Sequence record: PV419677.1
Source: a phage
Strand: one strand, 5' to 3'
DNA length: 64,000 nt
The notes under the pieces are model-generated. The model saw only the letters and a program-made list of their open reading frames with translations, did no database searches and was not told the origin of the DNA. Positions within the stretch are counted from its first letter, which is position 1; each line of letters begins with the position of its first letter. Shown here piece by piece: positions 1-47,402 of the stretch. The translations under genes were made by a program, and so were the position numbers.

Positions 1-27
1 AAAAAAGGGACCCGAAGGTCCCCTTTA
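1..27 (-). terminator. rho-independent terminator after gene 32
   Basis: minus-strand hairpin GGGACC-UUCG-GGUCCC followed by U-run directly downstream of the gp32 stop. Confidence 0.55.
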
Positions 28-29
28 TA

Positions 30-941: not shown

Positions 942-999
942 ATGATTTTCCTTAGATTATTTGATTTTTAACAGTTGTTTTGATTACGTATTAATTATA

Positions 1000-1671
1000 T
1001 TACTTTTTATTTAAAGCGCATTTATCACGATGACGTTTTAAATGATTTATAGATGTTTCATATCCACATAAATCACAAATAGCTCTTGGTAATTTTTTAC
1101 CTTTAAACCCTTTGGGATGGATATTATCAGGGTTTGAGTAACGACGCTTAGCAGAATCACTAAGAGTTTTTATCACTTCATTACCTCTGATGTTATTTAT
1201 TTTATCATCTTTTTCATAAAAGCGATTTAGGCCTTCAGAAATTGATTTCTTATGCTCCATACTTTTTGGAACATCTTTTTGTGCTTCCGAAATACATTTA
1301 TTTGTATGTGCGGAATTTTTCATTCCATATCTTGGAGCACGTTCACCAGCACCACCGAATGCACCACGAGCCGTTGCTTTATTAAAGAATAGCGGGGATT
1401 TTGGTATATTATAATGGGCGTGGTACCACTCTTCCTCGTCCAAAACATCTTCGCAGACATCAAGTATTTTGATTGTCGGCTTTTCGAGTTGAATAGCTTC
1501 AAGAAAATCAGGTTGCTCACAGGAGGACCAATATTCTCTTCTTGACGTGTATTTCAAATCAATTATAACACCATTTTCAAAAGCACAATTATGCTTTGAC
1601 CCAATGTAAAAATAAGGAGGCGTTTTATTTTTCAGACGAGTTTCAAATGTAAACCAATACACAACATTCAA
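1000..1671 (-). CDS. GIY-YIG homing endonuclease, SegG-like (free-standing)
   Basis: 223 aa; N-terminal VVYWF...YFYIGSK resembles GIY-x10-YIG; located between 32 and 59 where T4 carries segG. Confidence 0.6.
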   Translation of the reverse strand: MNVVYWFTFETRLKNKTPPYFYIGSKHNCAFENGVIIDLKYTSRREYWSSCEQPDFLEAIQLEKPTIKILDVCEDVLDEEEWYHAHYNIPKSPLFFNKATARGAFGGAGERAPRYGMKNSAHTNKCISEAQKDVPKSMEHKKSISEGLNRFYEKDDKINNIRGNEVIKTLSDSAKRRYSNPDNIHPKGFKGKKLPRAICDLCGYETSINHLKRHRDKCALNKK

Positions 1672-2321
1672 AACTTACACCCTTTAACAGTCTCAATGAA
1701 CAATTTACGGGCTTCAAGAGAATCGATATTTAAGATTTTCTTATAAGCATTTAGTTTAGTTGAATACTTTTCCCAAACCAAGTCGTTAGTCTGTTCATCA
1801 TGTTTATTTATAATGCCTAAAAATGAATCAAGCAAACAAAACGTTTCAAATGAGATAACATTCGATTGGAGAAGTTTGAAAATATAACTTGTGTTTACTT
1901 TAGTATTATACTCGAAAATCTCTTGAAGCGATTTGACTTCGACTTTCTTACTGAAGTAATAGATATTCTTTATATCATCTTCGTATACTTGTTTAATTCT
2001 TTTAAGTCTGCCAATGTATTCTCGATAAAATATCAGAGCATCAGCATCGCTTATATCACCTATCCATGCATCCTGGTTCGCGACCAGGTTTGACATGAAT
2101 ATTAACGTTAATTCTTTGAGAGTGTACTTATCACTAAGCTTTTCGAAAAAATACTTATCGCGACGTTTTTGATAAGCACTATCGGAGATTCGCATGGTCC
2201 AGTTATATTTGATAATATCATAACGACCCGAAAAATGCTGTTTGATGGATAAGTACAGTTGATATACTGATTTACCATTTATGTATCGGTTGTTATTTGG
2301 AGGCATGCGAATCGTAATCAT
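1668..2321 (-). CDS. 59: helicase loader gp59
   Basis: 217 aa, same length as T4 gp59 and matches recalled sequence; stop/start overlap with upstream ORF. Confidence 0.9.
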   Translation of the reverse strand: MITIRMPPNNNRYINGKSVYQLYLSIKQHFSGRYDIIKYNWTMRISDSAYQKRRDKYFFEKLSDKYTLKELTLIFMSNLVANQDAWIGDISDADALIFYREYIGRLKRIKQVYEDDIKNIYYFSKKVEVKSLQEIFEYNTKVNTSYIFKLLQSNVISFETFCLLDSFLGIINKHDEQTNDLVWEKYSTKLNAYKKILNIDSLEARKLFIETVKGCKF

Positions 2322-2611
2322 AACAAAAAGTCCAGCGTATTAGTTTTCTGTGTACGAGACATACTCGGACGAAGCAGGTTATCATCATAGGCTTCGTTCA
2401 TAATCTTATCAATGATTCCCGCAGGAATGTATCGCGCAAAATTACCTTCAGGAATTCCACGTTCTTCCAACCAGGCAGTCGCAGCTTCCAGATAAGACAT
2501 TTCAGTTGACTCAACCATGGCTTCAATATCAAGCCCGTTTTGCTGCTTACTAATCGCCCCGGAAGGCGATTCAGTTTTCTGTGTATCGAAATTAACTAAA
2601 GAGGACATCAT
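2318..2611 (-). CDS. 33: late transcription co-activator gp33
   Basis: C-terminal ...LLRPSMSRTQKTNTLDFLL as in T4 gp33; start trimmed from track ORF to ATG at 2611 preceded by GGAG. Confidence 0.75.
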   Translation of the reverse strand: MMSSLVNFDTQKTESPSGAISKQQNGLDIEAMVESTEMSYLEAATAWLEERGIPEGNFARYIPAGIIDKIMNEAYDDNLLRPSMSRTQKTNTLDFLL

Positions 2612-2861
2612 AGAGCTCCACAGCTTCGGTTTTTTCATCTTCAAAACGTTCACGAGTGCCTTTATGATACAGACCGAGCTGTGTATTGAACATCTTACCG
2701 TCAACGCCTAATTCAGTTTTTGCCTTATCTTTAAGGTCTTTAATTTCGTCTGCATATGCTTCCATTTTTAATTTGGTATCGGAAGCAGCTTTAATCAGCT
2801 TGGCTAGTTCAGCGCCATGAGTATCAGGACAAAATTCAACTTTCACTTTTTTCTCTTTCAT
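2592..2861 (-). CDS. dsbA: dsDNA-binding protein DsbA
   Basis: 89 aa, same length as T4 DsbA; matches recalled sequence; position between rnh and 33. Confidence 0.8.
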   Translation of the reverse strand: MKEKKVKVEFCPDTHGAELAKLIKAASDTKLKMEAYADEIKDLKDKAKTELGVDGKMFNTQLGLYHKGTRERFEDEKTEAVELYDVLFS

Positions 2862-2869
2862 AATATACC

Positions 2870-3814
2870 TTAATAAAATTCAGCAATATTTGCAGTTAGT
2901 TTAGACAGACCAGACTTAACAAAGTAAGGATAAACTTTACTTTTGGCTGGGATAACGTAGTTATTATATCGTTCTAAGATTGAAGCGGATATTTCCGCTG
3001 GGATAAAGTCCATATCAATCAACAATTGGTTTTCACAGAATCTATTATATTGCTCTTCTGTTAAAAGCGTTTTCAAAACGTCATGGTCGTAATAATTGAG
3101 TGCAATTTGTTCAAGCTCAGCAGCGCGGGTCGGTGGGGTGCGTTCACCTTCTTCACGAGTGTAATAAAAATCACCACGAACCTTGATGCTTGACACGTTA
3201 TCTTTTTTGTCACCTTTAACAACCTTTGTCACGCAATCCATAAGAGCATCGCCTGATTTAGTTTTGACATATTTTTTCTGCATCGGTGACCATTGTTTTA
3301 CCCCAGGGAATTTATGCAACTGGGTAAAGTCGCCATCCGAAGAAACAACCATAACCGGATGTCCGAGACCAGTGAGCAATTTCGTTAATACTGCAATATG
3401 GTCGTCAGCCTCAATTTTATCCATATTCATCACGATGTAAGGCATATGTTTTTCCATTTCATCAATGATGATATGCATGGCAGCGTGTAGACCTTCCCAA
3501 TCAAATTGTGACTCTTCACGAGCTTTTGCACGGTTTTTCTTATAATAATAAGATTTCGTGCGTCGCCAATAACCATTCTTCGAATTATCAACACAAATAA
3601 TTGGGACTGTATAACCGAGCTTTTTAAACTGTACAATGTTTTTTCTGATAGAGTTCAGAACCAGATGTCTGGTCATTGCGGTTGTCACCTTAGGGAAGCC
3701 CGCGTCTTTACCGAATTCCTGGAAGGCTGCTGCCATGATGAGCTGACTAAAATCGAGTAACTGAAAACCATCTTTTTGACGGTCTTCTTCAGGGAGTAAA
3801 AAATCTAAATTCAT
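2870..3814 (-). CDS. rnh: RNase H / 5'-3' exonuclease
   Basis: 314 aa; motifs YYKKNRAKAREES, SSDGDFTQLH as in T4 RNase H (305 aa). Confidence 0.9.
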   Translation of the reverse strand: MNLDFLLPEEDRQKDGFQLLDFSQLIMAAAFQEFGKDAGFPKVTTAMTRHLVLNSIRKNIVQFKKLGYTVPIICVDNSKNGYWRRTKSYYYKKNRAKAREESQFDWEGLHAAMHIIIDEMEKHMPYIVMNMDKIEADDHIAVLTKLLTGLGHPVMVVSSDGDFTQLHKFPGVKQWSPMQKKYVKTKSGDALMDCVTKVVKGDKKDNVSSIKVRGDFYYTREEGERTPPTRAAELEQIALNYYDHDVLKTLLTEEQYNRFCENQLLIDMDFIPAEISASILERYNNYVIPAKSKVYPYFVKSGLSKLTANIAEFY

Positions 3815-3871
3815 ATGAACCTCTGTTCAATTAGTTGACTCGATTATATTAGCATAAAATTTTTAAAGCAA

Positions 3872-3879
3872 TATAAATA
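3872..3879 (+). promoter_or_regulatory. late promoter (TATAAATA) for gene 34
   Basis: exact TATAAATA about 30 nt upstream of gp34 ATG. Confidence 0.6.
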
Positions 3880-3909
3880 CACGTATACCAATCAATAAGG
3901 ATAAAGCAC

Positions 3910-6900
3910 ATGGCCGATATTTTAAAACCAGCATTCAGAGCAACATCCGGTCTCGATGCGGCTGGTGAGAAAGTCATTAATGTCGCGAAAGCTGATTTCT
4001 CAGTTTTGTCAGACGGCGTTAACGTAGACTTCTTTATAGAAGAAAACACAATTCAACAATATGATGCAACACGCGGATATAAGAAAGATTTTGCAGTTAT
4101 CTATGATAACCGTATTTGGGTTTCCCAACGTGAAATCGCAGAACCAGCTGGCCCATTTGTTCAGCAATATTGGACCGCAACCCGTACTGACCCGAAATGG
4201 GAAACTGTTGCATCACCAACTCGTCAGCTTAGCTCCGGGGAATTTATCGCAGTCGACTCAGCTGCAAGCTTTACCACATTTACATTGCCTCCGAACCCGA
4301 CTGATGGTGATACCATCGTTATTAAAGATATCGGCGGTAATACCGGTTATAATGAAATTAAAATCCAGTCAAGCAACGTGCCTGGCCAAGGTAACCAAAA
4401 GATTGTTCGCTTTGGTAATCAGTATTCAGAAGTTTTAATTACCAAACCATTCTCTTATAACATGCTTATCTTTTCAAACCGCTTATGGCAATTTTGGGAA
4501 GCAGGTAACGAAGAACGTGGTATCAGAGTAGAACCGTCGACCGGACGTTTCCATGCACAAGCTGGCGACTTTATTATGCGTCGTTATACAACTGGTGCAC
4601 CGATTACTTTCATTCTTCCTAAGTATGCAAACCAGGGTGATATTGTCAAATCTGTTGATATCGATGGCATGGGGCCAACGTTCCACCTGATGGTTGAAAC
4701 CTTTGACACCAGTTCCAGTCTTGGTAAAGCTGGCCAGCATCAAATGGAATTCCGTACCACAGGTGATGGTTTCTTCGTTTATGATGCTGCCGAAAAACTC
4801 TGGCATGTTTGGGACGGTGATTTTAAAACTCGTCTTCGTGTTATTCGCGACAGCGTTAAACTTTTACCAAACGAAAGTGTCATTGTATTTGGCGAAGATA
4901 ACTCAACTCCGGCAACGATTAATATCGATTTACCAACGGATGTTTTGCAAGGCGATATTGTTAAGATTGCGCTGAACTATCTCCGTAAATCGCAGACTGT
5001 TAATATAAGAGCTGCTGTCGGCGATAAGATTGCAACTGACATTAAATTGCTGCAATTCCCTAAACGTTCCGAGTATCCACCAGATACAACTTGGGTGATG
5101 GTTGATTCATTGACCTTTAATGGCAACATCAGTTATACTCCGGTTATTGAATTATCATATGCAGAAGATGCAGTGTCTGGAACAAGTTATTGGGTTGTCG
5201 CTCAGAACGTCCCGACTGTCGAACGAGTTGACTCATTAAATGATTCCACGCGTACACGTCTTGGTGTTATTGCTCTGGCAAACCAGACTCAGGCAAACGT
5301 TGACCATGAAAATAACCCAGAGAAAGAACTCGCAATTACACCTCAGACTTTAGCCAACCGTGTTGCTAAAGAGAACCAACGAGGCATTGCCAGAATCGCA
5401 ACGACTGCCCAAGTAAATCAGAACAGTGATTTTGCATTTGTTGATGATGTAATTATTTCTCCGAAAAAACTCAATGAACGTACGGCAACAGAAACGAGAC
5501 GTGGGCTCGCAGAACTCGCCACACAGCAAGAAACCGATGCGGGTGTAGATGATACCACAATTATAACTCCAAAGAAACTGCAAGCTCGCCAGGGCTCAGA
5601 ATCGCTATCCGGTATTGTAACTTACGTTTCAACGACTGGTGCAACTCCTGCTGCTTCGCGTGAATTAAATGGTACAAACGTTTATAATAAAAATACGGTT
5701 AATCTGGTTGTTTCTCCGAAAGCTCTTGACCAGTACAAAGCTACTTACACCCAGCAAGGCGCGGTTATTCTTGCGGTTGAAAGTGAAGTAATCGCTGGTA
5801 CTTCTCAATCTGGCTGGGCAAACGCAGTCGTTACTCCAGAAATGTTGCATCGCAAAACTGCTCTTGATTCCCGTATCGGTTTAATCGAGATTGCTACTCA
5901 AGTTGAAACAGATGCAGGAACCGATTATACCAGAGCTGTGACTCCTAAAACGTTAAATGACCGTAAAGCATCAGAAACGTTAACCGGCATAGCCGAGATT
6001 GCTACGCAATCAGAATTTGATACTGGAACTGATGATACTCGTATCTCAACTCCATTAAAAATTAAAAATAGATTTAATAATACTGCTCGTACTTCTGTTA
6101 ATGCATTAAGTGGTTTAGTAGAAACAGGGACGCTCTGGGACCATTATAGCCTGAATATTCTTGAAGCAAATGAGACTCAGCGTGGCACAGCAAGATTAGC
6201 AACTCAGGGTGAAGTCAATACTGGCACTGACGATAAAACAATCGTTACTCCGCTTAAATTGATGTCGAAAAAAGCCACTGAAAACGCCGAAGGTATTGTT
6301 CGCATCGCGACAAACGCAGAAGCAACAGCAGGCACATCAAAAGTCTTGGCCATTAGTCCGTCTGCGCTGAAATATATTGCCCAAACGGAAACAACTTGGG
6401 AAGCATCTGAAACACTGCGTGGATTTGTTCGTTTATCTTCCGGTGCAGCTACTTCGGCCGCAACTACAACGACGGGCGCGGGATTTACATATGAAAATGG
6501 TGTGTATACCCCGGACCCAAGTAAACTGGTTAGCTATGCGAAATCTGGATATGCAGTTTCGCCTTACGAATTAAACCGCGTATTGCAAAACTTCTTACCG
6601 ATAAATGCGATGGCTGTTAATGCTGAAAAACTGGATAACCTCGATTCGACCCAGTTTATTCGTCGTGATATTGCTCAGACTGTTGAAGGTGTATTAACCC
6701 TTACTAAGCAGACAAATATCTCTGCTCCGGTTGTATCGACGAGCACTGCGGTGTTTACTGATGTAACGGCTGGTACTTCGACGTTCGGAACTGTGAATGT
6801 TGTTAATGGAACTAACAAGTGGAAAATCACTGCTCCTTCCGCCGGAACAACAATGACTATTGGCGATACGACTAACGTATTGACATTAAACACCGCCTCG

Positions 6901-17592: not shown

Positions 17593-17689
17593 AGTCTTTA
17601 TCTATCTTATTACCAATAAACATACCAACAATCACACCTGCGATTGCCGCAAAAATACAAAGCAATGCAAACTCAACTCCAAAACTCAT
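17591..17689 (-). CDS. small hydrophobic protein (32 aa)
   Basis: ATG overlaps gp52 TGA (ATGA); MSFGVEFALLCIFAAIAGVIVGMFIG single TM. Confidence 0.35.
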   Translation of the reverse strand: MSFGVEFALLCIFAAIAGVIVGMFIGNKIDKD

Positions 17690-19065
17690 AGAGCCTCCAA
17701 ATCATTAAGGTATTCAGTTTTAACATCAGTTGTCTTCCAGTACTCATGCTCAGCTTTCTTAGCCTTTGCTTCGTCTGCAAGCTTCTTGGCTTCATCAGAG
17801 GTCATATGGTAGATGTTCATCGCCACTAACTTCTCTGCATAATCGCCATATATTTCACTCGCCTGGAGTTCCTCAATCAACTTCTTACGAGGTTTTCCCT
17901 GGATAACAACCTTACCATCAATCACTTCTTTAATAAAGAAGACTTTTGCCCGGGCCAGTTTAAATGCCGCTTCAGTTTCTTTAATCTTACTGTCAATTCG
18001 CACTTGAACATAAGTCTTACGGACATCAACGAAATCGCGAATCAGGTCAAGCGTGTTGGTATATTCAGCCAATTTGCCTTTGTGATTAAGCACAGTTAAG
18101 TTCTGGGAGAGCTTCTCAATCAGACCAAAGTCTTTCATGATTTTCTCATGATTCTCTTCTTCGGTGCCATCCAACTTGTATTCTTTACGGAATTTAATCT
18201 TAAACCCAAAACCATGTTCACCGCAGTTATCTTTCCAGGTGATAAAACCTTTCTCTTCCAGCGGGTCCAGGATTTTACTTGTATATTTTTCCAGGTTCCA
18301 TTGGACCGGGATTTCAGTAATTTCCATTTGAGTCCGGGAAGTCATTTTGTACGTGCCATGAAGTTCATACTTACCAGGCTCTTCCAGCTCAACAACTTTA
18401 CCACGGAATTCTGGATATTTTACTTTCGGAGCAACCGGCTCACGACCTTCCACGATAGCTTTAACAGCTTCCTTGACGTCCTGGAACGAATGAGGAAGGA
18501 TATCAGTAGCAAAGCCAACAGCAATCCCAGAAGTGGCGTTAAGTAATACAGTAGGAATAACAGGAAGATAAAAAGCAGGAGGCTTATGTTCTTCATCAGG
18601 ATGGACCGGAGCATATTCTGTATCCTTAAACAAGTTGTAAAAGTTCTTTGAAACCCTTGCGAATACATAACGAGCCGATGATGCTTCTGGTACCATTCTG
18701 GAACCAAAGTTACCTTGCCCATCAAACATAGGATATTCATTTTTATATGTTGCAACCAGACCAGAAGTTGCTTCTTCCGCTGATGCTTCACCATGGTGAT
18801 AACCATAATCAGCTACGCCACCTGCGATGGATGCAACTTTATGGAATTTATTCTTATCACCACGCGCCAGGTCTAATGCTCTCGCCATAACAAATCTGTG
18901 AACTGGTTTAAAACCATCAATCATGTTTGGGATGGCACGACCTTCCACAGTGTAGATAGCATATGACAATGCTTCCACATCAATAATGTCTTTTAGACTG
19001 CGTGGGTTAAGGGTCCCCATGGAATCACTGAACTGTTTGGACATCATACTTAAAACGTCAGACAT
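17686..19065 (-). CDS. 52: DNA topoisomerase II medium subunit gp52
   Basis: 459 aa (T4 442 aa); GyrA-like N-terminus ...GFKPVHRFVMARALD... Confidence 0.9.
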   Translation of the reverse strand: MSDVLSMMSKQFSDSMGTLNPRSLKDIIDVEALSYAIYTVEGRAIPNMIDGFKPVHRFVMARALDLARGDKNKFHKVASIAGGVADYGYHHGEASAEEATSGLVATYKNEYPMFDGQGNFGSRMVPEASSARYVFARVSKNFYNLFKDTEYAPVHPDEEHKPPAFYLPVIPTVLLNATSGIAVGFATDILPHSFQDVKEAVKAIVEGREPVAPKVKYPEFRGKVVELEEPGKYELHGTYKMTSRTQMEITEIPVQWNLEKYTSKILDPLEEKGFITWKDNCGEHGFGFKIKFRKEYKLDGTEEENHEKIMKDFGLIEKLSQNLTVLNHKGKLAEYTNTLDLIRDFVDVRKTYVQVRIDSKIKETEAAFKLARAKVFFIKEVIDGKVVIQGKPRKKLIEELQASEIYGDYAEKLVAMNIYHMTSDEAKKLADEAKAKKAEHEYWKTTDVKTEYLNDLEAL

Positions 19066-19073
19066 ATATCACC

Positions 19074-19214
19074 TTACCAGATTAACGAATGTACTGCCAT
19101 TATAGCATCAGAAATAAAAAGCACAACCTGCACTAATGCAAACACAACTCCATAATAAAGCGCCACCAACAAAGTAGCAAGGGCTAACGAGTAGCCCAAG
19201 ATTTTCTTAATCAT
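19074..19214 (-). CDS. small hydrophobic protein (46 aa)
   Basis: ATGA overlap with upstream ORF; hydrophobic; ac/52.1 locus of T4. Confidence 0.35.
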   Translation of the reverse strand: MIKKILGYSLALATLLVALYYGVVFALVQVVLFISDAIMAVHSLIW

Positions 19215-19359
19215 TTTTATCCAATAATTTAAATAGTGTTAAAGTCGCTAATACACCTTGAGCTGTTGACTGCAGAAATACTGAAGTTTCTCCAGTTATT
19301 AATGTTCCAACAAATAAAAATGACCAACAGAAAAAAGCTACGCCATGAACAAATTTCAT
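19207..19359 (-). CDS. small hydrophobic protein (50 aa)
   Basis: ATG with GAGGA Shine-Dalgarno; hydrophobic; ac/stp locus. Confidence 0.4.
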   Translation of the reverse strand: MKFVHGVAFFCWSFLFVGTLITGETSVFLQSTAQGVLATLTLFKLLDKND

Positions 19360-19439
19360 ATTTTCCTCAAGGGCGTCCAAAGACGCCAGTTAATTTCAGA
19401 TTATAACGATGCCATTGCATCACGTGTTCATTATGGAAA

Positions 19440-19613
19440 TTACTCATATATACCACACATTTTGCATAAGCGTTCAAAACAGATATACCCACCACTAAAG
19501 CACATAGTAACAGCAACTTTATCATTAAATGGAGCACCAAATGCTATAAAGGCTCCTGTAATAACAAATAGTGCTAAAACAAATAGGTAACCCATTGTAA
19601 AGAAATGTCTCAT
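19440..19613 (-). CDS. small membrane protein (57 aa)
   Basis: ATG one nt after ndd stop; TM segment [19 protein letters not shown]. Confidence 0.35.
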
Positions 19614-19614
19614 A

Positions 19615-20064
19615 TTAATAGCTCTGCAGAATGAATTTAAAGTTATCAGCAAGCATGCGATTCATTTCTGAAAGGGTCTGGCAATCAGAACTATGTGAGC
19701 GAGTGAACGCCATCGCAATTTGACCTTTACCATAACCAGTTGTCAGAGGTTTCATTTTAGAAACTGGGACAAACAGGACTTCATAGATAACCCCATTGTT
19801 CGCCATTGTGCGAGACAGTTGAGAACGCTGTTTGCGGATGTGACTTAATACAGTGTCAAACCCTTGTTGTGAACGTTGGTTACCAACATAAAAACGTGCA
19901 GCAACAATACGTGATTCGCCTTCACCTTTAACCACGAAATAAAAACCTGGTTGAGTGATAGCTTCTTTAGTTGGGCGACCGGCAACATAATTACCATTAT
20001 GGATATAAGCAACAGTGGTAGCACCAGCATTCAGTACGTCACGACGGGTCATGTAAGTAGTCAT
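19615..20064 (-). CDS. ndd: nucleoid disruption protein Ndd
   Basis: 149 aa; [45 protein letters not shown] match recalled T4 Ndd (151 aa). Confidence 0.9.
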
Positions 20065-20095
20065 ATTAATTTCCTCAGTAAGTTAAAGTTTTGTG

Positions 20096-20138
20096 CTCCA
20101 GTGGGGTCATTATACTCTGACCCCAAGAGTTTGTACAC
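20096..20138 (-). promoter_or_regulatory. early promoter cassette (type A) upstream of ndd
   Basis: minus strand GTGTACA-N17-TATAAT; -10 lies in loop of inverted repeat GGGGTCA/TGACCCC; 44 bp identical to 31163..31202. Confidence 0.55.
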
Positions 20139-20482
20139 TATTTTTGTAGTTGTTCTAAAATAAATCCACTGGTGTAAAGGCTTGCATTATACAGACGGTC
20201 AAGAGACAACGAATCCAACCCATAAGCTTCACGAATTGCATTCACAACACTTTCATAACTTGTATAATAAACATCGCGATAATCGCGGTCCATAGTCATG
20301 CGGAACTTAATAAATTTATAGAAACCAGTTTCAGGGTCCTGATAGAATGCAAATTCAGCAGACATCAAATTTTTAAGGTTAACAGCTTTTGTGCCACCTG
20401 AATAACTTAAATCAAATGCTTCTGATATGCTAATTTGTTTAAAGAACATAATGTTGCGATTACCAAAAAATACTTTAGACAT
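20138..20482 (-). CDS. hypothetical protein
   Basis: 114 aa; ndd-rIIB variable region. Confidence 0.5.
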   Translation of the reverse strand: MSKVFFGNRNIMFFKQISISEAFDLSYSGGTKAVNLKNLMSAEFAFYQDPETGFYKFIKFRMTMDRDYRDVYYTSYESVVNAIREAYGLDSLSLDRLYNASLYTSGFILEQLQK

Positions 20483-20502
20483 AATATTTTCCTCAATTAA
20501 AT

Positions 20503-20540
20503 TTTATTATCCATGGGAACATTATACTCTGCTCCCAAGA
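20503..20540 (-). promoter_or_regulatory. early promoter cassette (type A)
   Basis: near-identical copy of the 20096 cassette (GTGTACAAACTCTTGGG..GAGTATAATG). Confidence 0.5.
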
Positions 20541-20549
20541 GTTTGTACA

Positions 20550-20795
20550 CTATTCTACATCTACCGCGTCATCCCACAAGTCAACTTCTTCTGATGATTC
20601 CATCAGTTCATCAACTGTGAAGCACTCAGTATTATTTTCAATTGCAAAACGCTTCTGATAAAAAGGATAATCCAAACAGTTTTCAGTGCGCACGGGGCGC
20701 TCGCTGTTATCCATTAAAGGCGAAATGCGAATCAGTTGTTGACCATTACCCAGGACAAATTTTTCACCAACTGCAATGTCTTTAAAAAGTTTCAT
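20550..20795 (-). CDS. hypothetical protein
   Basis: 81 aa; acidic C-terminus. Confidence 0.5.
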   Translation of the reverse strand: MKLFKDIAVGEKFVLGNGQQLIRISPLMDNSERPVRTENCLDYPFYQKRFAIENNTECFTVDELMESSEEVDLWDDAVDVE

Positions 20796-20998
20796 TGCTT
20801 AGCTCCATTCCAAATTACATCAACAACAGACTTCAAACCATTATCCTGGATTTGTGTGAACACTTCAGCAGCAATCCAGAGCTGGAAACCAATCATTGCA
20901 ATGGCACCAATGAAAATCAGGATAATCATCGCCACAATAAACTTGAACATAAAGTCAAAGCGACGATTGGATTTCTGAAATTTTGAATTGTAATTCAT
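20792..20998 (-). CDS. hypothetical membrane protein
   Basis: 68 aa from ATG at 20998 (GAGGA Shine-Dalgarno); track start at 21046 is a TTG codon; TM segment FIVAMIILIFIGAIAMIGF. Confidence 0.45.
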   Translation of the reverse strand: MNYNSKFQKSNRRFDFMFKFIVAMIILIFIGAIAMIGFQLWIAAEVFTQIQDNGLKSVVDVIWNGAKQ

Positions 20999-21008
20999 AA
21001 TATTATCC

Positions 21009-21125
21009 TCAAAAGAAATAGTTAAAGTAAACGCGCACATGGTCAATCATAAAAACAATTGGGAAAATGCTCAGAACAACAAACAGTACAAACATGTTCC
21101 AAATGGCTTTAAGTAACTTTTTCAT
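21009..21125 (-). CDS. small hydrophobic protein (38 aa)
   Basis: ATG with GGAG Shine-Dalgarno directly downstream of a promoter cassette; hydrophobic. Confidence 0.35.
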   Translation of the reverse strand: MKKLLKAIWNMFVLFVVLSIFPIVFMIDHVRVYFNYFF

Positions 21126-21132
21126 AATCATC

Positions 21133-21180
21133 TCCAGTAGTTGATAGGTTCATTATACTACAACCACTGGAGATGTACAC
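21133..21180 (-). promoter_or_regulatory. early promoter cassette (type A)
   Basis: GTGTACA-N16-TATAAT followed by leader AUCAACUACUGGAG. Confidence 0.5.
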
Positions 21181-21270
21181 TCTTTTATGCAAGTTTCATT
21201 AATAATAAACTAAAACAAACGCAAATTACTGGGATACACAGCATCCAGATAAGGCACCAGGTTTTGCTGC

Positions 21271-21537
21271 TCAAAATATCACCTCTTTTATTTCAATCAG
21301 ACCTCGGTACAATGCAGTGCGAAGGTCATAAAGAATATCTATGCCATCAACATTATCCAGTTTTCCATCAATAAGCTTTTTTAAATCTTCCTTTGATGCA
21401 ATCAATGGACGAAGAAATTTACAATCAGAAAGAGACAATTCTGTGGTAACATCATCACCATCACCTGACGCATCATACATAGCGGCAACAACCATACCTG
21501 TAACTTTGTGTTTGGCGTAGTATAATTTAATATCCAT
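21271..21537 (-). CDS. hypothetical protein
   Basis: 88 aa from ATG at 21537 with GAGGA Shine-Dalgarno. Confidence 0.45.
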   Translation of the reverse strand: MDIKLYYAKHKVTGMVVAAMYDASGDGDDVTTELSLSDCKFLRPLIASKEDLKKLIDGKLDNVDGIDILYDLRTALYRGLIEIKEVIF

Positions 21538-21547
21538 TTTATTTTCC

Positions 21548-21703
21548 TCATGCATAACGATTGTATGTATTTTTGCGACACGCGTAAAATTGACGCTCAG
21601 TAACTGCAAAACTTTTTCCACGTTGTTGCATTAATTTAAAAAATTCAGTAATATCGCCATTAACTTCAAGGTATAAAGTCATTGCATATTGAGCAGGTTT
21701 CAT
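21548..21703 (-). CDS. hypothetical small protein (51 aa)
   Basis: ATG with GGAGA Shine-Dalgarno just downstream of a type B cassette. Confidence 0.35.
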   Translation of the reverse strand: MKPAQYAMTLYLEVNGDITEFFKLMQQRGKSFAVTERQFYACRKNTYNRYA

Positions 21704-21720
21704 TTTATTCTCCAGTTGTT

Positions 21721-21770
21721 TGGTAACTCAGTATGGAATCATTATACATAGACTCCATACTGATGTACAC
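21721..21770 (-). promoter_or_regulatory. early promoter cassette (type B leader)
   Basis: GTGTACA -35 and TATAAT -10, conserved leader shared with 17481/35596/43795. Confidence 0.5.
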
Positions 21771-21780
21771 TACTTTTTAA

Positions 21781-22056
21781 TTAATTGTGCATTTGTTCTT
21801 TAACTTCTTTATATGCGCCAACTGCATTCACGACCCCAGTAAAATCTGCAGTCCCACGATAGAGATAGAAAGCGATTTCAGTCAGGTGGTAGACTTCAAA
21901 TTCTGAAAGATAAATGATAACGTCATAATAGGCAACTTGTCCCTGGACTTCGTTGAATACTACATCAAAAATTTCATGGGTTGGAAAATTGATGTTGTTG
22001 TTTTTGAGTGCTTGAATAAGAATTTGTTTGATGTTATTAGTAGTAACGTGTTCCAT
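21781..22056 (-). CDS. hypothetical protein
   Basis: 91 aa from ATG at 22056 with GAGGA Shine-Dalgarno. Confidence 0.45.
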   Translation of the reverse strand: MEHVTTNNIKQILIQALKNNNINFPTHEIFDVVFNEVQGQVAYYDVIIYLSEFEVYHLTEIAFYLYRGTADFTGVVNAVGAYKEVKEQMHN

Positions 22057-22059
22057 GAT

Positions 22060-22114
22060 AATGTCCTCATTTGTGTGTGAGGACATTATTACATGGTTGG
22101 TTCAGCTTGTAAAC
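22060..22114 (-). promoter_or_regulatory. early promoter
   Basis: minus strand GTTTACA -35, 16 nt spacer, TAATAAT -10. Confidence 0.45.
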
Positions 22115-22695
22115 CGGTGATAGGGAAATTTTTCTTCTGAACAAGAACGGAGGTACCAGCCATCCCCTTGTGACTTCTGCACAAGACCAGACTCAGGAAC
22201 GAAAGCGCCAGGTCCAGCAAGGAATTTTGGTTTAAATCTATAACCTTTGATAGTCTCTTTTACATCGAACATAATCATAAGGTCAGCAAGCTTGTGCTGC
22301 ATAAAAGGGCCAAGATTAACTCCGTAACCGTGTGGGTAATCGCCATGGCTGCCAGTGTGCACGGATATCCATTTGGAACCAGACTGATGGGTCTTGACTT
22401 CGATTCTTACCCCTTCCTTCGAAACTACATCAAATGCAAAGGAATAAGGATTATCGTAATCTTCATCGCCACCACATAAAAAACCGGAGGTCCATTTAGC
22501 AATAGCTTGTTCAGCCATTGTAGCCACCATACATCTTTGCATGACTTGCTCACGGTCCTGACCAGGGTCTTTACGCAATGAATACCTGGCAGTGTCTACA
22601 ATCTTTTGCAGGGATTCGGGGGTTAAGTCTTCTTTTGTATAAAGAAAGGAGGGCATCTTTTTCAGATGCTCCCATGTTTTACTCTTCTGAATCAT
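22102..22695 (-). CDS. putative PD-(D/E)xK-type nuclease (candidate denB-like)
   Basis: 197 aa; FAFDVV...RIEVKT resembles D...(D/E)xK nuclease core; lies near rIIB where T4 has denB; assignment tentative. Confidence 0.4.
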   Translation of the reverse strand: MIQKSKTWEHLKKMPSFLYTKEDLTPESLQKIVDTARYSLRKDPGQDREQVMQRCMVATMAEQAIAKWTSGFLCGGDEDYDNPYSFAFDVVSKEGVRIEVKTHQSGSKWISVHTGSHGDYPHGYGVNLGPFMQHKLADLMIMFDVKETIKGYRFKPKFLAGPGAFVPESGLVQKSQGDGWYLRSCSEEKFPYHRFTS

Positions 22696-22948
22696 CTTTT
22701 ACCTCATCGATACCGACGATTCCCCGGATATGAAGCTCGCCATAGTACAAACGGTCATTAGCATCAAATGTATCAGAATCCGGGTCAGGGAATTCCCCAA
22801 CAACTACTTCATCACATTCCAACCAGCCATAGTGAACATCACCTTCATGCTTGATGAGCTTACCACAGTAAACTATTCCCGCATAATGATGACCCCGGAG
22901 ATTTGAAACTTTGATGTCACGGTCTGACACATTGAAATGCTTAATCAT
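22679..22948 (-). CDS. hypothetical protein
   Basis: 89 aa. Confidence 0.45.
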   Translation of the reverse strand: MIKHFNVSDRDIKVSNLRGHHYAGIVYCGKLIKHEGDVHYGWLECDEVVVGEFPDPDSDTFDANDRLYYGELHIRGIVGIDEVKDDSEE

Positions 22949-22951
22949 AAT

Positions 22952-23161
22952 TTATTCACCAAAATAAGAGATACGAGTTGCCAGTACATGAGCATAAGCG
23001 CCCATCGCATCCAACTGGGCAATCAAAAGACCTTGTTGACGAGCATCGAGAGTTTCAAAAACTCCACCCTTAATAAACTCTTCAAGAGCATTAATTTTCA
23101 AAACCAGCTGGTCATATTCTTCAACTACACGTGCTTGGAAACCTAACATTTCTTTAGACAT
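22952..23161 (-). CDS. hypothetical protein
   Basis: 69 aa. Confidence 0.4.
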   Translation of the reverse strand: MSKEMLGFQARVVEEYDQLVLKINALEEFIKGGVFETLDARQQGLLIAQLDAMGAYAHVLATRISYFGE

Positions 23162-23645
23162 TGTGTTCTTCCATATATTTTAATCGAGCTTCATTTGCTT
23201 CTTCTGGAGTTGCAAAAGCTCCGACTTGAATTTGTTTTTTATTTCGCATAATAGTGGCTCGCCATGGTTTATTCAAAGCTCGTTTATCAAACGAGACTCC
23301 TTTAAATCCAGACTTGTTGTTATTATACGGGCGCTTATTTAAAGCATTCTCGCCTGGACTAACCCATCTGCAGTTATCGGGAGAGTACCCTTTATCGTTA
23401 TCTGTTCGGTCAAGTTGATGTTTGTCAGTGGGTCGTGGCCCCATATCTGTATAAAATCTTTCAAAATCATGCAGCCATTCATCGCAAACAGTGATACCCC
23501 GACCGCCATATCGAGAATAACTAATATGTGTTGGATTGCAACACCGAGCTTTCATGCCAATCCATACAATGTATTCAGGCGTGTGACCTAGCCCGTGGAC
23601 AATACCACGAGCCGAGCCATCTTTAGCAATTGTTTGTTTAATCAT
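23154..23645 (-). CDS. HNH homing endonuclease with AP2 DNA-binding domain
   Basis: 163 aa; HNH-like ...LDRTDNDKGYSPDNCRWVSPGENALNK; AP2-like SGFKGVSFDKRALNKPWRATI...AFATPEEANEAR. Confidence 0.7.
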   Translation of the reverse strand: MIKQTIAKDGSARGIVHGLGHTPEYIVWIGMKARCCNPTHISYSRYGGRGITVCDEWLHDFERFYTDMGPRPTDKHQLDRTDNDKGYSPDNCRWVSPGENALNKRPYNNNKSGFKGVSFDKRALNKPWRATIMRNKKQIQVGAFATPEEANEARLKYMEEHNV

Positions 23646-24615
23646 TGAAACGTTCGGTCACATCTTCAAGAACCAGGTAACCGCAAACCCTCATCTTACT
23701 ATCGGAATAATCCACCGGGATGCTTACAACATCACGCGGGTGAACTTTACAGGATACGATGCGCCCATCACCATGACCAAAACCGCTTCCGAGATAACCT
23801 TTAGAACAAACATGCAGCCCAGTTGAGCAGGTTTGTTCGTCATTGTCATTCACACGAGAGCGTGGCATTTTAACATATTTACCAGGACTGTTGTCGAATG
23901 TGTTTGAGTGACAATCTTTGTAGGTTGAACGAACCATTTTCCAGGCGATGAAATGACCATCTTCGGTGATTTCGATATCGTTCGCAACCAGGAAGTCAAA
24001 CAAACGTTGCACTGCTTTTTCACTCGGGTTTTCAAGGAGATTCTCGAGGAATGGCAGATAGAATTCAAAGTCTTCGCCATTTTGCATTGAATCAATGATA
24101 CGCGTAACCAGACCAGAGCGCAGTTCAATTCCCTGATAGAACAGGCTACCACCTTCAATACGCACATCGCCTTTCACATATTTTTGCACTGCAGCTTTGA
24201 TTGAGATAAACTCGATAGCATCATCAAAACGCGATTCTTTGAGCGCTTGGACAATATCATCAAAGTGCTTATGGTCTTTTGTTGCGTTCCAGACCGTACG
24301 GCCTTCAGTGATGGAAACGAATTTGCTTGATGCATTCCATACGATTTCCGGGCGGCTTCCGCCGATTGTATCAGTAACCGGGACTTCAACCGTTACTGTC
24401 ACCGGAGCATTAATCGCCACACCAACAGCTGCTTTCAGTGATGCAGAAATGGTTTTAGCTAATTTTGATTCTTTATCATTTTTCAAAACGCGGCGAATGG
24501 TGTCAACGGACACAGCAAAATATTCTGCCAATTCAGGCTGGGTATAATTGCCCGTTGAATACATCTGGACCACATCAGCTTGTTCGGCTTTAGACATACA
24601 TTTGATATTAAACAT
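23638..24615 (-). CDS. rIIB: rIIB protein
   Basis: 325 aa (T4 312 aa); adjacent to rIIA. Confidence 0.85.
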   Translation of the reverse strand: MFNIKCMSKAEQADVVQMYSTGNYTQPELAEYFAVSVDTIRRVLKNDKESKLAKTISASLKAAVGVAINAPVTVTVEVPVTDTIGGSRPEIVWNASSKFVSITEGRTVWNATKDHKHFDDIVQALKESRFDDAIEFISIKAAVQKYVKGDVRIEGGSLFYQGIELRSGLVTRIIDSMQNGEDFEFYLPFLENLLENPSEKAVQRLFDFLVANDIEITEDGHFIAWKMVRSTYKDCHSNTFDNSPGKYVKMPRSRVNDNDEQTCSTGLHVCSKGYLGSGFGHGDGRIVSCKVHPRDVVSIPVDYSDSKMRVCGYLVLEDVTERFND

Positions 24616-24616
24616 A

Positions 24617-26851
24617 TTATTCCTTATTGGCCGCTTCCACGGCCTTCATGATTTGAGCAACGTTCTGTACTTGTTCAGTTGACATGGCGTTACGGTTATA
24701 TAAAAAGTGTGAAACAATCGGGTGATTCTTTTCAAATTCAAAAACCATTTTATCGCTTGTTACCGAAGCGTTTTTGGTCAGGTCGTCATAAATCTTATTA
24801 CAAAGGACCAGAGTTTCCTGCATGGTCTTATCAACTGTTCCACTGTTATATGCGTTATAAGCAAAGAACTTATTGAACTGCATTAATTCGGCATAGTCAG
24901 TATTCACATCTTTCTGAACATCTTTTGCATAAAAATACTTGAACATAAAATTCAGTTCTGCATATTCAGACAGGATAGGAATATAATAACGCGAACGGCT
25001 TGAAGCGGCAATGTACTGGTCCGCATCAACCGCATCAATCAATTCCACATAACGATTGACTGCAGCTTCAATCAGACAATCACACTGCGCCAGCTTGGTA
25101 ATCTTTTTCTGAAGCTGTGGACGAATAACACAGAATTCATTGATTTCCAACAGGTTTGCCAGTTTACACAATGTCTGGGTCCCGAAGGTCGTGGTGCCAT
25201 ATTCTTGATTCAACGGGGAAATGCTACTGCGATTAATGAATACAGCATAACCATCGATTTCCTCTGCATCAGCTGCACATGTAAATTCTTCAACAGACTG
25301 CCATTTGCCATTAGTTTTAGTCCAACGAATCAATGATGGAGTCTTTGACTTAACGCGCGCTTTCGGGTCAGCAACCGGAATCCAGTCTTTTACAAGGGCG
25401 GTCAGTTCAGACGTACGATAGATATTAACTGTATCGCCTTTAAATCGTTCTTGAAGTTGAACCATCAGACGTGTTTGAATTTCGCTGGTTGGGTCAACGA
25501 ACAATAGACTACTACCTTGTACAGTCGGGACTTTACCAGATGCTTTGAGCTTTTTGGCTTTCGCGCTGGTGTCATATAGCATTGAACTGATACCACGAAT
25601 CATCGCAATTCGCCCTTTAGCATCGTCAATAACAATGTTCAAGGTATTATTCTGAATACCAAACATGCTCGTCAGGCTTGCAGTATTCGTGTTCGAGCTT
25701 GAGTTACGCAGACGTTTCAGACGGGTAGTGCTATAGATATCATAGACAACCCCGGCATTAATAAGGTCTTTGTCCAGCTCGAACATTTCATACATCTGGT
25801 TAAAGGTCAATTGCGATTTCGTAAATTTCGTTTCAGCATTACGAGCTTTCAGAAAATTACGAGCTTCATAACTCAGACTCTGTAATTCGCGATACGTGTG
25901 GCGGATACATTCTGATTCCTGCCATTTCTTACAATCATCTTCCATGACTTTCTTATCAAGGGATTCAATACGTTCAACGATATTTGCGACCGTACGTTTA
26001 TCCAGTGATAATGCTTCGCGAGAAGGTGCAATATCCAACGAACCCATCGGGAACTTAATAAAGACAACATCATTTTTGGCGGTCATCCAGGTTTTCTTTG
26101 TATAACCGTCAGCAATTGGATAAACAATTCCACCGTAAATTGCATAAAGACCATAACGTTCTGGGCTGCTATAATCAATACGCTCTGGAGCATAATAATC
26201 ATCAAATTCCGGGAAATAATTAATTTCGCCTACGCCTTGTACTTCAGCCAGTCCAGCAAATGGGCGCATGATATATGCAATCTCGTGGCGGAACTTACCA
26301 AAATCATTACTATCAACCGGGACAACAACTTCAATCCCTGTGCGGTCGCCAGGTTTCATTGGTTCGCTAAAGGTTGGCTTAATCTGTGGACCATCACCAT
26401 CCATATAAGCGACATAACCATTAACTTGACCATCATGATACGAAATCAGGCTAAACGTCTCTGTATAACTGAACGGAGATTTAGAACCCAGACCAAAGCC
26501 ACCAATAAAATCATTGGATTCAGCCTTGGATGATGCAAAGAAACTGTTATACAGACCTGGGGTATTTTCATCACCACGAATCTGGAAATCACTCATACCT
26601 GGGCCAAAGTCACGACACACAAAGCGTGGGTCCAGTTCACCAGGAGCTTGAACAATGAATTTATCCTGACAACCATTGAGCATATGAGCATCAATCATAT
26701 TGGTAATCAGCTCACGAACAACCGCACGCACCTTATTTGTATAAAGGTCACTGGTCAGAATCTTAAACACCTTTGGAGATGCCTGGATTGTGAATGCTGA
26801 TGCCTTGGCACCATTACCAAGGATTGTTTCCTTTTCAGTTTCTAAAATCAT
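24617..26851 (-). CDS. rIIA: rIIA protein (GHKL ATPase-like N-terminus)
   Basis: 744 aa (T4 725 aa); N-terminus MILETEKETILGNG...RELITNMIDAH matches recalled rIIA. Confidence 0.9.
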   Translation of the reverse strand: MILETEKETILGNGAKASAFTIQASPKVFKILTSDLYTNKVRAVVRELITNMIDAHMLNGCQDKFIVQAPGELDPRFVCRDFGPGMSDFQIRGDENTPGLYNSFFASSKAESNDFIGGFGLGSKSPFSYTETFSLISYHDGQVNGYVAYMDGDGPQIKPTFSEPMKPGDRTGIEVVVPVDSNDFGKFRHEIAYIMRPFAGLAEVQGVGEINYFPEFDDYYAPERIDYSSPERYGLYAIYGGIVYPIADGYTKKTWMTAKNDVVFIKFPMGSLDIAPSREALSLDKRTVANIVERIESLDKKVMEDDCKKWQESECIRHTYRELQSLSYEARNFLKARNAETKFTKSQLTFNQMYEMFELDKDLINAGVVYDIYSTTRLKRLRNSSSNTNTASLTSMFGIQNNTLNIVIDDAKGRIAMIRGISSMLYDTSAKAKKLKASGKVPTVQGSSLLFVDPTSEIQTRLMVQLQERFKGDTVNIYRTSELTALVKDWIPVADPKARVKSKTPSLIRWTKTNGKWQSVEEFTCAADAEEIDGYAVFINRSSISPLNQEYGTTTFGTQTLCKLANLLEINEFCVIRPQLQKKITKLAQCDCLIEAAVNRYVELIDAVDADQYIAASSRSRYYIPILSEYAELNFMFKYFYAKDVQKDVNTDYAELMQFNKFFAYNAYNSGTVDKTMQETLVLCNKIYDDLTKNASVTSDKMVFEFEKNHPIVSHFLYNRNAMSTEQVQNVAQIMKAVEAANKE

Positions 26852-31162: not shown

Positions 31163-31202
31163 CCAGTGGGGTCATTATACTCTGACCCCAAGAGTTTGTA
31201 CA
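31163..31202 (-). promoter_or_regulatory. early promoter cassette (type A)
   Basis: 44 bp identical to 20096..20138. Confidence 0.55.
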
Positions 31203-31210
31203 CTTTAAAT

Positions 31211-45306: not shown

Positions 45307-45635
45307 CTCTTTTTCATTTTAATCTTATCAATTTCATCTTGTATTTGCATTGTAACACACTTTTCTACATGCACTGCAAGCTCCGCTTTGCGGTCTTCAG
45401 AAGGGGTGCCGAAATCAACTGAAACTTTTCCCGATGGTTCAATTTTAATTCCGGTTACGTACACAATGTGATTGGACCCATCAGGGAGTGATAACAGAAT
45501 TTCCTGCCGTACAGTTCCCATGGATTGCCGGATAATCTCCAAACTTTTTTCGTAGTAAGGTACAGAAGGAGCCTTAGCTCCCTCCGCATCTTTCTCGAAA
45601 TTATCTAAATCAGATAAATCGATATCATTCATCAA
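45291..45635 (-). CDS. 40: probable head vertex assembly protein gp40
   Basis: 114 aa; position between 41 and uvsX; C-terminal KKRWWKW membrane-association-like tail. Confidence 0.55.
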   Translation of the reverse strand: MMNDIDLSDLDNFEKDAEGAKAPSVPYYEKSLEIIRQSMGTVRQEILLSLPDGSNHIVYVTGIKIEPSGKVSVDFGTPSEDRKAELAVHVEKCVTMQIQDEIDKIKMKKRWWKW

Positions 45636-47392: not shown

Positions 47393-47402
47393 TGTATTTT
47401 CC

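Follow-up and report, generated by a model that had tools for sequence, protein, structure and literature searches.

In bacteriophage T4, the genes between rIIB and ndd are arranged rIIB-denB.1-denB-ndd.6...ndd.1-ndd. The endonuclease IV (DenB) of T4 and T2 cuts single-stranded DNA containing unmodified deoxycytidine (dC), 5' of the dC (PMC1635256, PMC2175332). Residues S176 and W88 of T4 DenB were identified by mutation, W88R inactivating the enzyme (PMC2175332), and the T2 denB mutations G71R, G180E, and W181* escape retron Eco2 (PMC12916289). In published promoter-early stem-loop (PeSL) elements, the stem-loop most often overlaps the -10 box (PMC2839356). IPA-HNH homing endonuclease genes, which combine an HNH-like domain missed by Pfam HNH_3 with a C-terminal AP2 domain, occur in ICP1 and other phages (Barth et al. 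2023, PMC10448857), and AP2-HNH genes were recorded in 2006 in RB49 and RB43, which are T4-like (PMC1524935). Here, we describe the interval between ndd and rIIB (positions 20138-23645) in a 64-kb stretch of phage DNA (sequence record PV419677.1; the whole 64,000-nucleotide stretch is referred to as the window), in which all of these elements come together.

We consider it very probable that 20138-23645 is the rIIB-ndd hyperplastic region, an early-transcribed minus-strand block of non-core genes. This is a single judgment on the region as a whole, taking together denB, ten accessory genes, PeSL cassettes, and a selfish gene that we designate K. Homology, synteny, conserved residues, predicted folds, coding signal, the presence or absence of genes, and the break in identity around K were observed directly; from them we infer enzymatic activities, promoter activity, and a homing target. 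Deposited genomes and publications (VR7, SP18, MN01; PMC2839356, PMC4122927, PMC10448857) already contain the region with its genes, including DenB, as well as the HNH annotation and cassette-driven plasticity. The region carries little weight as a discovery, since all of its components are of known kinds and in public records.

Source and layout of the rIIB-ndd interval

A megablast search with positions 19600-24700 as the query against 50,697 phage records matched 101 of them. The top match was Escherichia phage MN01 (96.1% identity, 100% query coverage), followed by other Gapriverviruses (VR7, UPEC01, SP18, VR20/25/26, and EAWsc9). Because of these matches, the window is assigned to a Gaprivervirus, that is, to a T4-type coliphage resembling VR7, SP18, and MN01. 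The same gene order is found in the annotations of MN01, VR7, UPEC01, SP18, EAWsc9, and VR20. The architecture common to the deposited annotations and T4 is rIIB, (HNH), denB.1, an ORF, denB, small ORFs, ndd.4, ndd.3/2a, ndd.1, an ORF, and ndd, where ORF denotes open reading frame.

The original prediction of about a dozen densely packed small ORFs was borne out. Twelve minus-strand ORFs, tightly packed, occupy the interval, with ndd as the downstream flank and rIIB as the upstream flank. Eleven were taken from the ORF list of 18500-26000, with starts corrected by PHROG coverage and sequence; the twelfth is a 29-aa ORF with a TTG start. As had also been predicted, several genes overlap. There are five such junctions, namely, rIIB/K (8 nt), K/DenB.1 (8 nt), I/DenB (17 nt), ndd.2a/ndd.1 (4 nt), and E/ndd.6 (4 nt). 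The genes are listed below; where three numbers separated by slashes are given, they are the variable sites at codon positions 1, 2, and 3, counted against nine close relatives.

19615-20064, minus: ndd (nucleoid disruption protein), downstream flank; Pfam Phage_T4_Ndd, E 9.6e-69; 61% identity to T4 Ndd
20138-20482, minus: ORF A, 114 aa, phrog_10053; 3/2/23
20550-20795, minus: ndd.1 homologue, 81 aa, acidic, phrog_2183; 51% identity to T4 Ndd.1; 5/8/24
20792-20998, minus: ndd.2a/ndd.3-like small membrane protein, 68 aa; Pfam DUF7248, E 8.5e-25; C-terminal motif in common with T4 ndd.2a
21009-21131, minus: ndd.4 homologue, 40 aa, one transmembrane segment; phrog_3098, E 2e-23; 61% identity to T4 Ndd.4
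21185-21274, minus: ndd.6 homologue, 29 aa, hydrophobic, TTG start; motif SSxxWCxIWxLxIPVIC common with T4 Ndd.6
21271-21537, minus: ORF E, 88 aa, start ATG at 21537, phrog_2390; 8/2/26
21548-21703, minus: ORF F, 51 aa, no PHROG or Pfam family; 0/0/8, all synonymous
21781-22056, minus: ORF G, 91 aa, start ATG at 22056, phrog_17571, lineage-restricted ORFan; 7/3/23
22102-22695, minus: denB, endonuclease IV orthologue, 197 aa, with a predicted PD-(D/E)xK-type core (E62 / D89 / E99-V-K101)
22679-22948, minus: ORF I, 89 aa, acidic; Pfam DUF7418, E 3e-33
22952-23161, minus: denB.1 homologue, 69 aa (65 aa in K-less genomes); Pfam crAss001_48 family, E 1.3e-19; 50% identity to T4 DenB.1
23154-23645, minus: ORF K, 163 aa, free-standing homing-endonuclease-like gene; HNH-like domain at about residues 20-105, AP2 domain at about residues 112-160
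23638-24615, minus: rIIB, upstream flank; its last ~8 codons differ between K-bearing and K-less genomes

No paralogue of any protein of the region was found elsewhere in the window, and an Rfam search of 19000-25000 returned no RNA family.

The 197-aa protein and DenB

Alignment of the 197-aa protein with T4 DenB by BLASTP gave 46% identity over the full length (E 4e-58). The protein also matched phrog_1360, the DenB family, over residues 1-196 (E 8.9e-80), and all 17 of its homologue clusters carry Pfam PF26887. No hit was obtained in the local copy of Pfam because PF26887 is newer than that copy. As in T4, the gene has rIIB/denB.1 on one side and the ndd cluster on the other, and it is annotated as denB in the VR7, MN01, and SP18 records. 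The original prediction had called the protein a possible denB analogue; the link to DenB held, and the word analogue has to give way, as the protein is by sequence the DenB orthologue itself. An exhaustive profile search of 1.84 billion representatives recovered only 33 relatives, and DenB is for this reason a narrow phage family. The same search did not connect DenB with any other named nuclease family, and no solved structure related to it in sequence was found.

The nuclease-like D...EVK core that had been noticed in the protein is conserved. In an alignment of 18 DenB sequences, E62, G71, D89, E99, V100, K101, S175, and G179 are invariant. D89 lies in the strand FDVV and E99-V-K101 in the strand RIEVKTH, with E62 in the preceding helix. 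In an AlphaFold2 model (predicted local distance difference test score, 86), the core fold resembles that of PD-(D/E)xK restriction enzymes. The modeled fold and the D...(D/E)xK motif together would place DenB among the PD-(D/E)xK-type nucleases, with D89, E99, and K101, probably together with E62, as candidate catalytic residues. The residues defined by mutation in T4 and T2 DenB also are largely retained. G71 and G179/W180 correspond to the T2 sites G71 and G180/W181, and S175 corresponds to T4 S176; W180 is present, and the other three do not vary among the homologues. T4 W88 adjoins the D89 position and is replaced here by Phe, an aromatic residue being kept at this position across the homologues.

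Judged by homology to the T4 and T2 enzymes, which have been characterized, it would be Mg dependent, would cut single-stranded DNA 5' of unmodified dC, and would help to destroy cytosine-containing host DNA. Because their DenB keeps the residues known to matter, Gapriverviruses should, by analogy with T4, trigger retron Eco2-type defenses and degrade dC DNA.

Cytosine modification

A tblastn search of the window with T4 proteins found no homologue of the gp42 dCMP (deoxycytidine monophosphate) hydroxymethylase, beta-gt, alpha-gt, or dam. The same search found gp56 dCTPase (deoxycytidine triphosphatase), 61, 41, uvsX, imm, 43, 45, 46, 47, and 55. The slot between uvsX and imm (45628-47785), which in T4 holds segA, beta-gt, and gene 42, contains instead a 176-aa lipoprotein-like ORF (46889-47419, minus) and a 47-aa membrane ORF. 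DenB and the gp56 dCTPase thus are kept although gp42, alpha-gt, and beta-gt are lacking from the window, including the syntenic gene 42 slot. This retention implies that the phage would protect its own DNA from DenB by a cytosine modification route different from that of T4. The missing gp42-type gene has been remarked on for Gapriverviruses (PMC8056088), and VR7 DNA is reported to contain modified, unglycosylated cytosines (PMC6326788). The pairing of DenB with the lack of gp42 is mildly interesting, but it has been pointed out previously by others.

Domains and family of gene K

K matches PHROG families labeled HNH endonuclease (phrog_374, E 8e-59). Its family comprises 6743 homologues at E <=1e-5, many of which carry PF00847, and RefSeq annotates the VR7 copy as 'HNH endonuclease'. 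In an alignment of 48 sequences, R34, C35, G47, G48, R49, I51, W57, F64, R80, Y87, N91, W94, and N103 are invariant; D79 is conserved as D or E, and the nearby H76 is common but not invariant. The block LDRxDNxxxYxPxNCRW...N presumably corresponds to the core of HNH_3 and T4 endonuclease VII, which it resembles when aligned by eye, and we take the position of the canonical general-base His to be that of the invariant R80. BLASTP with ICP1 gp59, the type member of the IPA-HNH class, gave 27% identity over 115 aa of the N-terminal domain (E 3e-6), and gp59 has Lys at the position of R80. ICP1 gp115 showed no similarity to K. A search of solved structures by sequence gave only noise, no NCBIfam hit was obtained, and the literature searched contained no biochemically characterized member with the exact LDRxDN motif.

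With a divergent N-terminal HNH-like domain and a C-terminal AP2 domain, K fits the AP2-associated IPA-HNH class of homing endonucleases and is a putative nuclease. The histidine-less active site of the family is mildly interesting.

Mobility of gene K

K is sporadic. Copies of at least 90% identity were found by tblastn only in DCP80, TH54, MN01, VR7, and phage 212, compared with 101 records that share the region, and K is absent from UPEC01, SP18, EAWsc9, YenP8, pEC-M719, and VR20. A homologue of 70% amino acid identity lies immediately after rIIB in Morganella phage MP1, which belongs to a different genus. The region of MP1 (5-4156) is minimal, consisting of rIIB-HNH/AP2-denB-ndd-gene 52 with no small ORFs. 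The family as a whole therefore can do without the small ORFs, while the HNH/AP2 gene keeps its place after rIIB.

In K-less genomes, rIIB ends ...DDVTEQF* and is followed by a 33-nt spacer with the hairpin GGGGCTTCGGCCCC, after which denB.1 starts MLGFQ...; the junction in the UPEC01 or SP18 allele includes ...GATGATGTAACTGAACAATTCTAAATTAATCGGGGCTTCGGCCCCTAATGAGGCTTTATG.... K-bearing genomes lack the spacer; their rIIB ends ...EDVTERFND*, and their denB.1 has an additional N-terminal MSKE, which is found only there. K precisely replaces the 33-nt hairpin spacer. Compared with MN01, there are no differences over 23094-23733 (K, 0/492 nt), whereas denB.1 and rIIB beyond this tract are 94.5% identical. 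Compared with VR7, K differs at 4/492 nt, against identities of 91.6% for denB.1 and 93.4% for DenB. With four differing sites, the carriers offer too few differences for a codon position test of K. In phage 212, K is 95% identical, and its frame is broken by an insertion of 2 nt.

These comparisons point to K being a recently acquired selfish mobile gene; invasion, short coconverted flanks, and decay make up the usual cycle of a free-standing homing endonuclease. The AP2 domain would recognize a site in K-less genomes, the likeliest target being the GC-rich GGGGCTTCGGCCCC spacer or the adjacent 3' end of rIIB. The spacer is favored because AP2 domains prefer GC-rich sites (PMC10448857). The divergent HNH-like domain would cut at that site, and repair from a K-bearing coinfecting genome would copy K together with ~50-90 nt of each flank. 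The rIIB/denB.1 junction thus provides a clean natural allele pair, with and without an AP2-HNH gene, that is usable to test the histidine-less HNH class. A MotA box scan gave 19 matches against 10 expected across the window, which is too weak for a middle-promoter claim. One MotA-box-like match, TGCTTTAAATAAGCGCCCGTATAAT (23346-23322, minus), lies inside K, upstream of denB.1, I, and denB, and could replace regulatory signals lost with the spacer.

Coding signal and families of the accessory ORFs

A lack of coding signal in comparative alignments had been named as grounds for abandoning these ORFs. The test was run, and an excess of variable third positions was found in every ORF from A to DenB.1 (DenB, 7/6/63). 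The 29-aa ndd.6-like ORF has counts of 6/2/8, a weak bias. Its alignment with T4 Ndd.6 pairs MSSLWWCFVWLISIPVIC... with SSKTWCLIWMLCIPVIC..., and its start codon is TTG here, ATG in MN01, and GTG in SP18. The frame is intact in 8 of 9 relatives, and the ORF is annotated in UPEC01 and pEC-M719. In Yersinia phage vB_YenM_P8 (YenP8), the ndd.6-like ORF is frameshifted within surrounding DNA that is 98.8% identical. The true start of the ndd.2a-like ORF is the ATG at 20998 rather than a TTG upstream, and the C-terminal NGLKSVV-IWNG motif is common to this 68-aa ORF and T4 ndd.2a. Ten accessory genes (ndd.1, ndd.2a-like, ndd.4, ndd.6-like, denB.1, A, E, F, G, and I) are under purifying selection and individually dispensable across relatives.

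Three hydrophobic products had been predicted, and we found the same number. The ndd.2a-like and ndd.4 products have Kyte-Doolittle maxima (19-residue window) of 2.96 and 2.43, respectively, and they and the ndd.6-like product are hydrophobic enough for a membrane span. These three small accessory products are single-pass membrane peptides.

Profile searches had been proposed for each ORF. They assigned the families of DenB and K and gave no function for the small ORFs, which matched only DUF or unknown families in Pfam, NCBIfam, and PHROG. Public records label all of the small ORFs hypothetical. Only its own 90% cluster was found for ORF G among 5.8 billion clusters. A literature search on ndd.1, ndd.3, ndd.4, and denB.1 returned only unrelated medical papers on 'NDD'. 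The EAWsc9 record labels A as KTSC, ndd.1 as DUF2829/Tad2-like, G as MafI immunity, the alternative I allele as YopX, and E as COesterase; these labels were not reproduced by Pfam even at E <=10 and were not relied on. The note in VR7 that G is 'similar to Staphylococcus phage G1 ORF058 putative HNH nuclease' was unsupported, G having no relatives beyond its own cluster. A role of the small ORFs in host takeover or anti-defense is a general expectation and reasonable as background. The ten conserved, swappable ORFs are reasonable candidates for host takeover and anti-defense screens, with none singled out by our results.

Predicted promoter-early stem-loop cassettes and plasticity

The original prediction had most genes preceded by their own early promoter cassette, which overstated their number. 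Only three strong cassettes lie inside the interval and one lies at its edge (20137-20109), serving ndd; a weaker site is found at 22113-22085. The consensus is GTGTACA-N16/17-(G)TATAAT(G).

20109-20137, minus: PeSL-type cassette, GTGTACA-N16-GTATAATG, with a hairpin across the -10 box, serving ndd; -18.8 kcal/mol, z -3.4
20521-20549, minus: PeSL-type cassette serving ORF A; repeat, motif, and hairpin; indel hot spot
21152-21179, minus: PeSL-type cassette, 16-nt spacer variant, serving ndd.4, ndd.2a, and ndd.1; repeat, motif, and hairpin
21741-21769, minus: PeSL-type cassette serving F, E, and ndd.6, with the strongest hairpin of the four; -21.4 kcal/mol, z -6.1
22085-22113, minus: weaker promoter-like site, TTTACA-N17-AATAAT with TG, at the 3' end of denB, upstream of G; consensus match only

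A repeat of 26-41 nt (families D1 and D3) is common to the four cassettes, whose predicted hairpins range from -13.6 to -21.4 kcal/mol (z -1.8 to -6.1). Every cassette includes the upstream gene's stop codon, GTGTACA, a spacer of 16-17 nt, TATAAT in the hairpin loop, and the Shine-Dalgarno (SD) sequence and ATG of the next gene. GTGTACA-N16-GTATAATG occurs in 9 copies in the window, all on the minus strand, compared with 0.18 expected. The composite motif and its repetition are those of PeSL elements (Arbiol et al. 2010; Comeau et al. 2014), to which the four cassettes are assigned as predicted elements. A copy at 31173-31203 (minus), GTGTACAAACTCTTGGGGTCAGAGTATAATG, is identical to the cassette at 20108-20138, 11 kb away, and further variants lie at 14813, 17514, 42605, 43819, and 63481. 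The PeSL family is genome-wide, as this copy and the variants across the window indicate.

The region is hyperplastic, as had been suggested. The nine close relatives show gene replacements, insertions, or deletions at 6 or more sites, almost all of them gene borders. ORF A has two alleles among the relatives (100% and ~56% identical), and ORF E has divergent alleles in MN01 (78%) and SP18 (41%). ORF F is present or absent, as is K, and ORF I is replaced in several relatives by a 106-aa allele that is 33% identical and of the same DUF7418 family. Extra small ORFs occur in relatives at the A/ndd.1 and ndd.2a/ndd.4 junctions. VR7 and VR20 lack the cassette at 20521-20549, where EAWsc9 and pEC-M719 have an additional ORF of 48 aa. 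Breakpoints map to 20492-20560 (PeSL), 20995-21011 (SD/start repeat), 21547-21701, 22695-22941, and 23149-23652. Those at 20492-20560 and 21698-21701 abut cassettes; the others are at SD/start repeats or gene borders. The PeSLs would divide the block into short early transcription units and, with the other short repeats at gene borders, would supply homology for the swapping, gain, and loss of modules.

Weighing of alternative explanations

Several observations weigh against our interpretation of the region. The promoter and hairpin calls are predictions from consensus and energy only, and some breakpoints, among them the one inside ORF A at 20193-20419, are not at PeSLs. For K, the AP2 hit scored 21.9 bits, below the Pfam gathering score of 33.3. 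No Pfam HNH family was hit at E <=0.1, and hhalign of the K family with the canonical HNH_3 protein ICP1 gp80 gave no signal. Foldseek against the PDB returned only weak matches to AP2 and PacI (PacI, E 1.9). With R80 at the general-base position, K could be catalytically inactive. Of the HNH-AP2 protein predicted next to rIIB, the AP2 domain, the location, and the HNH-labeled families stand, while a canonical HNH domain does not, as there is no Pfam HNH hit and Arg replaces His. The invariant Arg and the missing HNH hit would suit a different role, that of a non-nuclease, domesticated, sequence-specific DNA binder (AP2 plus a degenerate zinc/HNH-like module) regulating phage, host, or competitor transcription in the manner of the AP2-containing CasPR anti-CRISPR repressors. 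Some AP2 domain proteins of phages are known to work solely as transcriptional silencers, although CasPRs use a CapR domain rather than the N-terminal domain of K (bioRxiv 10.64898/2026.02.23.707548). The 8-nt overlaps that couple K translationally to rIIB and denB.1 on both sides also look like integration into an operon. However, K is present in only ~5 of ~100 related genomes, is nearly 100% identical across genomes while its flanks have diverged, and is frameshifted in phage 212, which together mark a selfish mobile gene and not a regulator that has been retained. Moreover, conservation across the 48 homologues extends to D79 and N103, the equivalents of metal ligands, and to the structural N91, and the family is one classed as homing endonucleases by Barth et al. 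We regard the regulator as unlikely and a mobile homing-endonuclease-like gene as the better description of K. A wider proposal remains tentative and, taken as a whole, somewhat doubtful. It holds jointly that K is an active homing endonuclease without the canonical His (using Arg80 and possibly Tyr87, as proposed for PacI) that is now invading Gapriverviruses through the spacer or the 3' end of rIIB, and that DenB kept without a gp42-type hydroxymethylase points to an uncharacterized protective cytosine modification.

The accessory ORFs and denB admit alternatives that we rate far lower. Several of the small ORFs might be chance frames in noncoding spacer between promoters. F, G, and A have no Pfam family, F has no PHROG, G has no relatives outside its own cluster, and the 29-aa ORF combines a TTG start with a weak codon position bias. 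Against this, the third-position excess is strong in all ORFs from A to DenB.1, and the eight variable sites of F are all synonymous. SD motifs precede the ORFs, some belonging to a repeated SD-plus-start motif (the TTGAGGAAAATATTATG family, 5 copies), and the 29-aa ORF is recognizably homologous to T4 Ndd.6, with its frame kept in all but one of the nine relatives. Chance frames are very improbable, and we retain these ORFs as genes. Hardly any credence is left for the 197-aa protein belonging to another nuclease lineage and resembling DenB only in function. The absence of a local Pfam hit and of a sequence-related solved structure meant that its assignment was not obvious from the sequence alone. 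The analogue is refuted by the full-length identity to T4 DenB, the phrog_1360 match, and PF26887 in all homologues, and the T4 locus and the single narrow family likewise speak for orthology.

Neighboring genes and other homing-endonuclease-like genes in the window

The minus-strand run over 18500-26000 consists of gene 52, small membrane ORFs, ndd, the interval, rIIB, and rIIA. Three more small hydrophobic ORFs lie between gene 52 and ndd (19074-19652, minus); no stp homologue was found at this position, which it occupies in T4.

17686-19065, minus: gene 52 topoisomerase subunit (ORF list)
within 19074-19652, minus: 52.1 homologue, 46 aa, DUF7396
within 19074-19652, minus: ac-like ORF, 57 aa, phrog_2501
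within 19074-19652, minus: 70-aa ORF, phrog_5941
24617-26851, minus: rIIA (ORF list)

Elsewhere in the window, the match of the DNA polymerase gene, gene 43, to T4 gp43 is divided into two pieces (47867-48865 and 50148-51659, minus), with an ORF for a SegA/SegF-like GIY-YIG endonuclease between them (~49723-50088). Because the two pieces flank this ORF, gene 43 appears to be split by a homing endonuclease insertion. Between genes 45 and 46, the opposite strand carries an ORF (55896-56249, plus) for a MobB/MobC-like HNH endonuclease that is 44% identical to T4 MobB.

Comparison with known systems

In T4 and the Gapriverviruses VR7, SP18, and MN01, the region is flanked, as here, by rIIB and ndd, followed by ac/52.1/gene 52 on the same strand, and has the same early character. 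T4 and this region have denB, denB.1, ndd.1, ndd.2a, ndd.4, and ndd.6 in common. Unlike T4, the window lacks ndd.2, ndd.3, and ndd.5, and A, E, F, G, I, and K are found here but not in T4. MN01 has the same gene set over the entire region plus one extra 48-aa ORF. What sets the window apart from other Gapriverviruses is only which alleles it has at A, E, and I and that F and K are present.

T4 DenB has 185 aa, compared with 197 aa here, where there is a C-terminal extension. G71, S175 (T4 S176), G179, W180, and the D89/E99/K101 core of the T4/T2 enzyme, the trigger of retron Eco2, are conserved.

The PeSLs of RB49/phi1, PST, and nt-1 consist, as here, of a stop codon, sigma-70-like -35 and -10 elements, a stem-loop on the -10 element, and an SD sequence with a start codon. 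In those phages and here, they recur between genes, cluster in hyperplastic regions, and coincide with indel borders. The -35 element here, GTGTACA, is nearer to the T4 early GTTTAC than to TTGACA, and the stems are of the GGGGTCA/TGACCCC type, in contrast to the long polyG/polyC stems of published PeSLs.

Like the IPA-HNH/AP2-HNH genes (ICP1 gp59 and gp209, RB49 ORF040c, and the class of Magnani et al. 2004), K is free-standing beside a conserved phage gene and sporadic. ICP1 gp59 is longer (272 aa, compared with 163 aa for K). T4 lacks the IPA-HNH class according to Barth et al., whereas K stands at the rIIB/denB.1 junction of a Tevenvirinae phage. PacI, a restriction enzyme of the HNH family with a noncanonical active site, is only 19% identical to K; it is dimeric, has two zinc sites, and lacks an AP2 domain.

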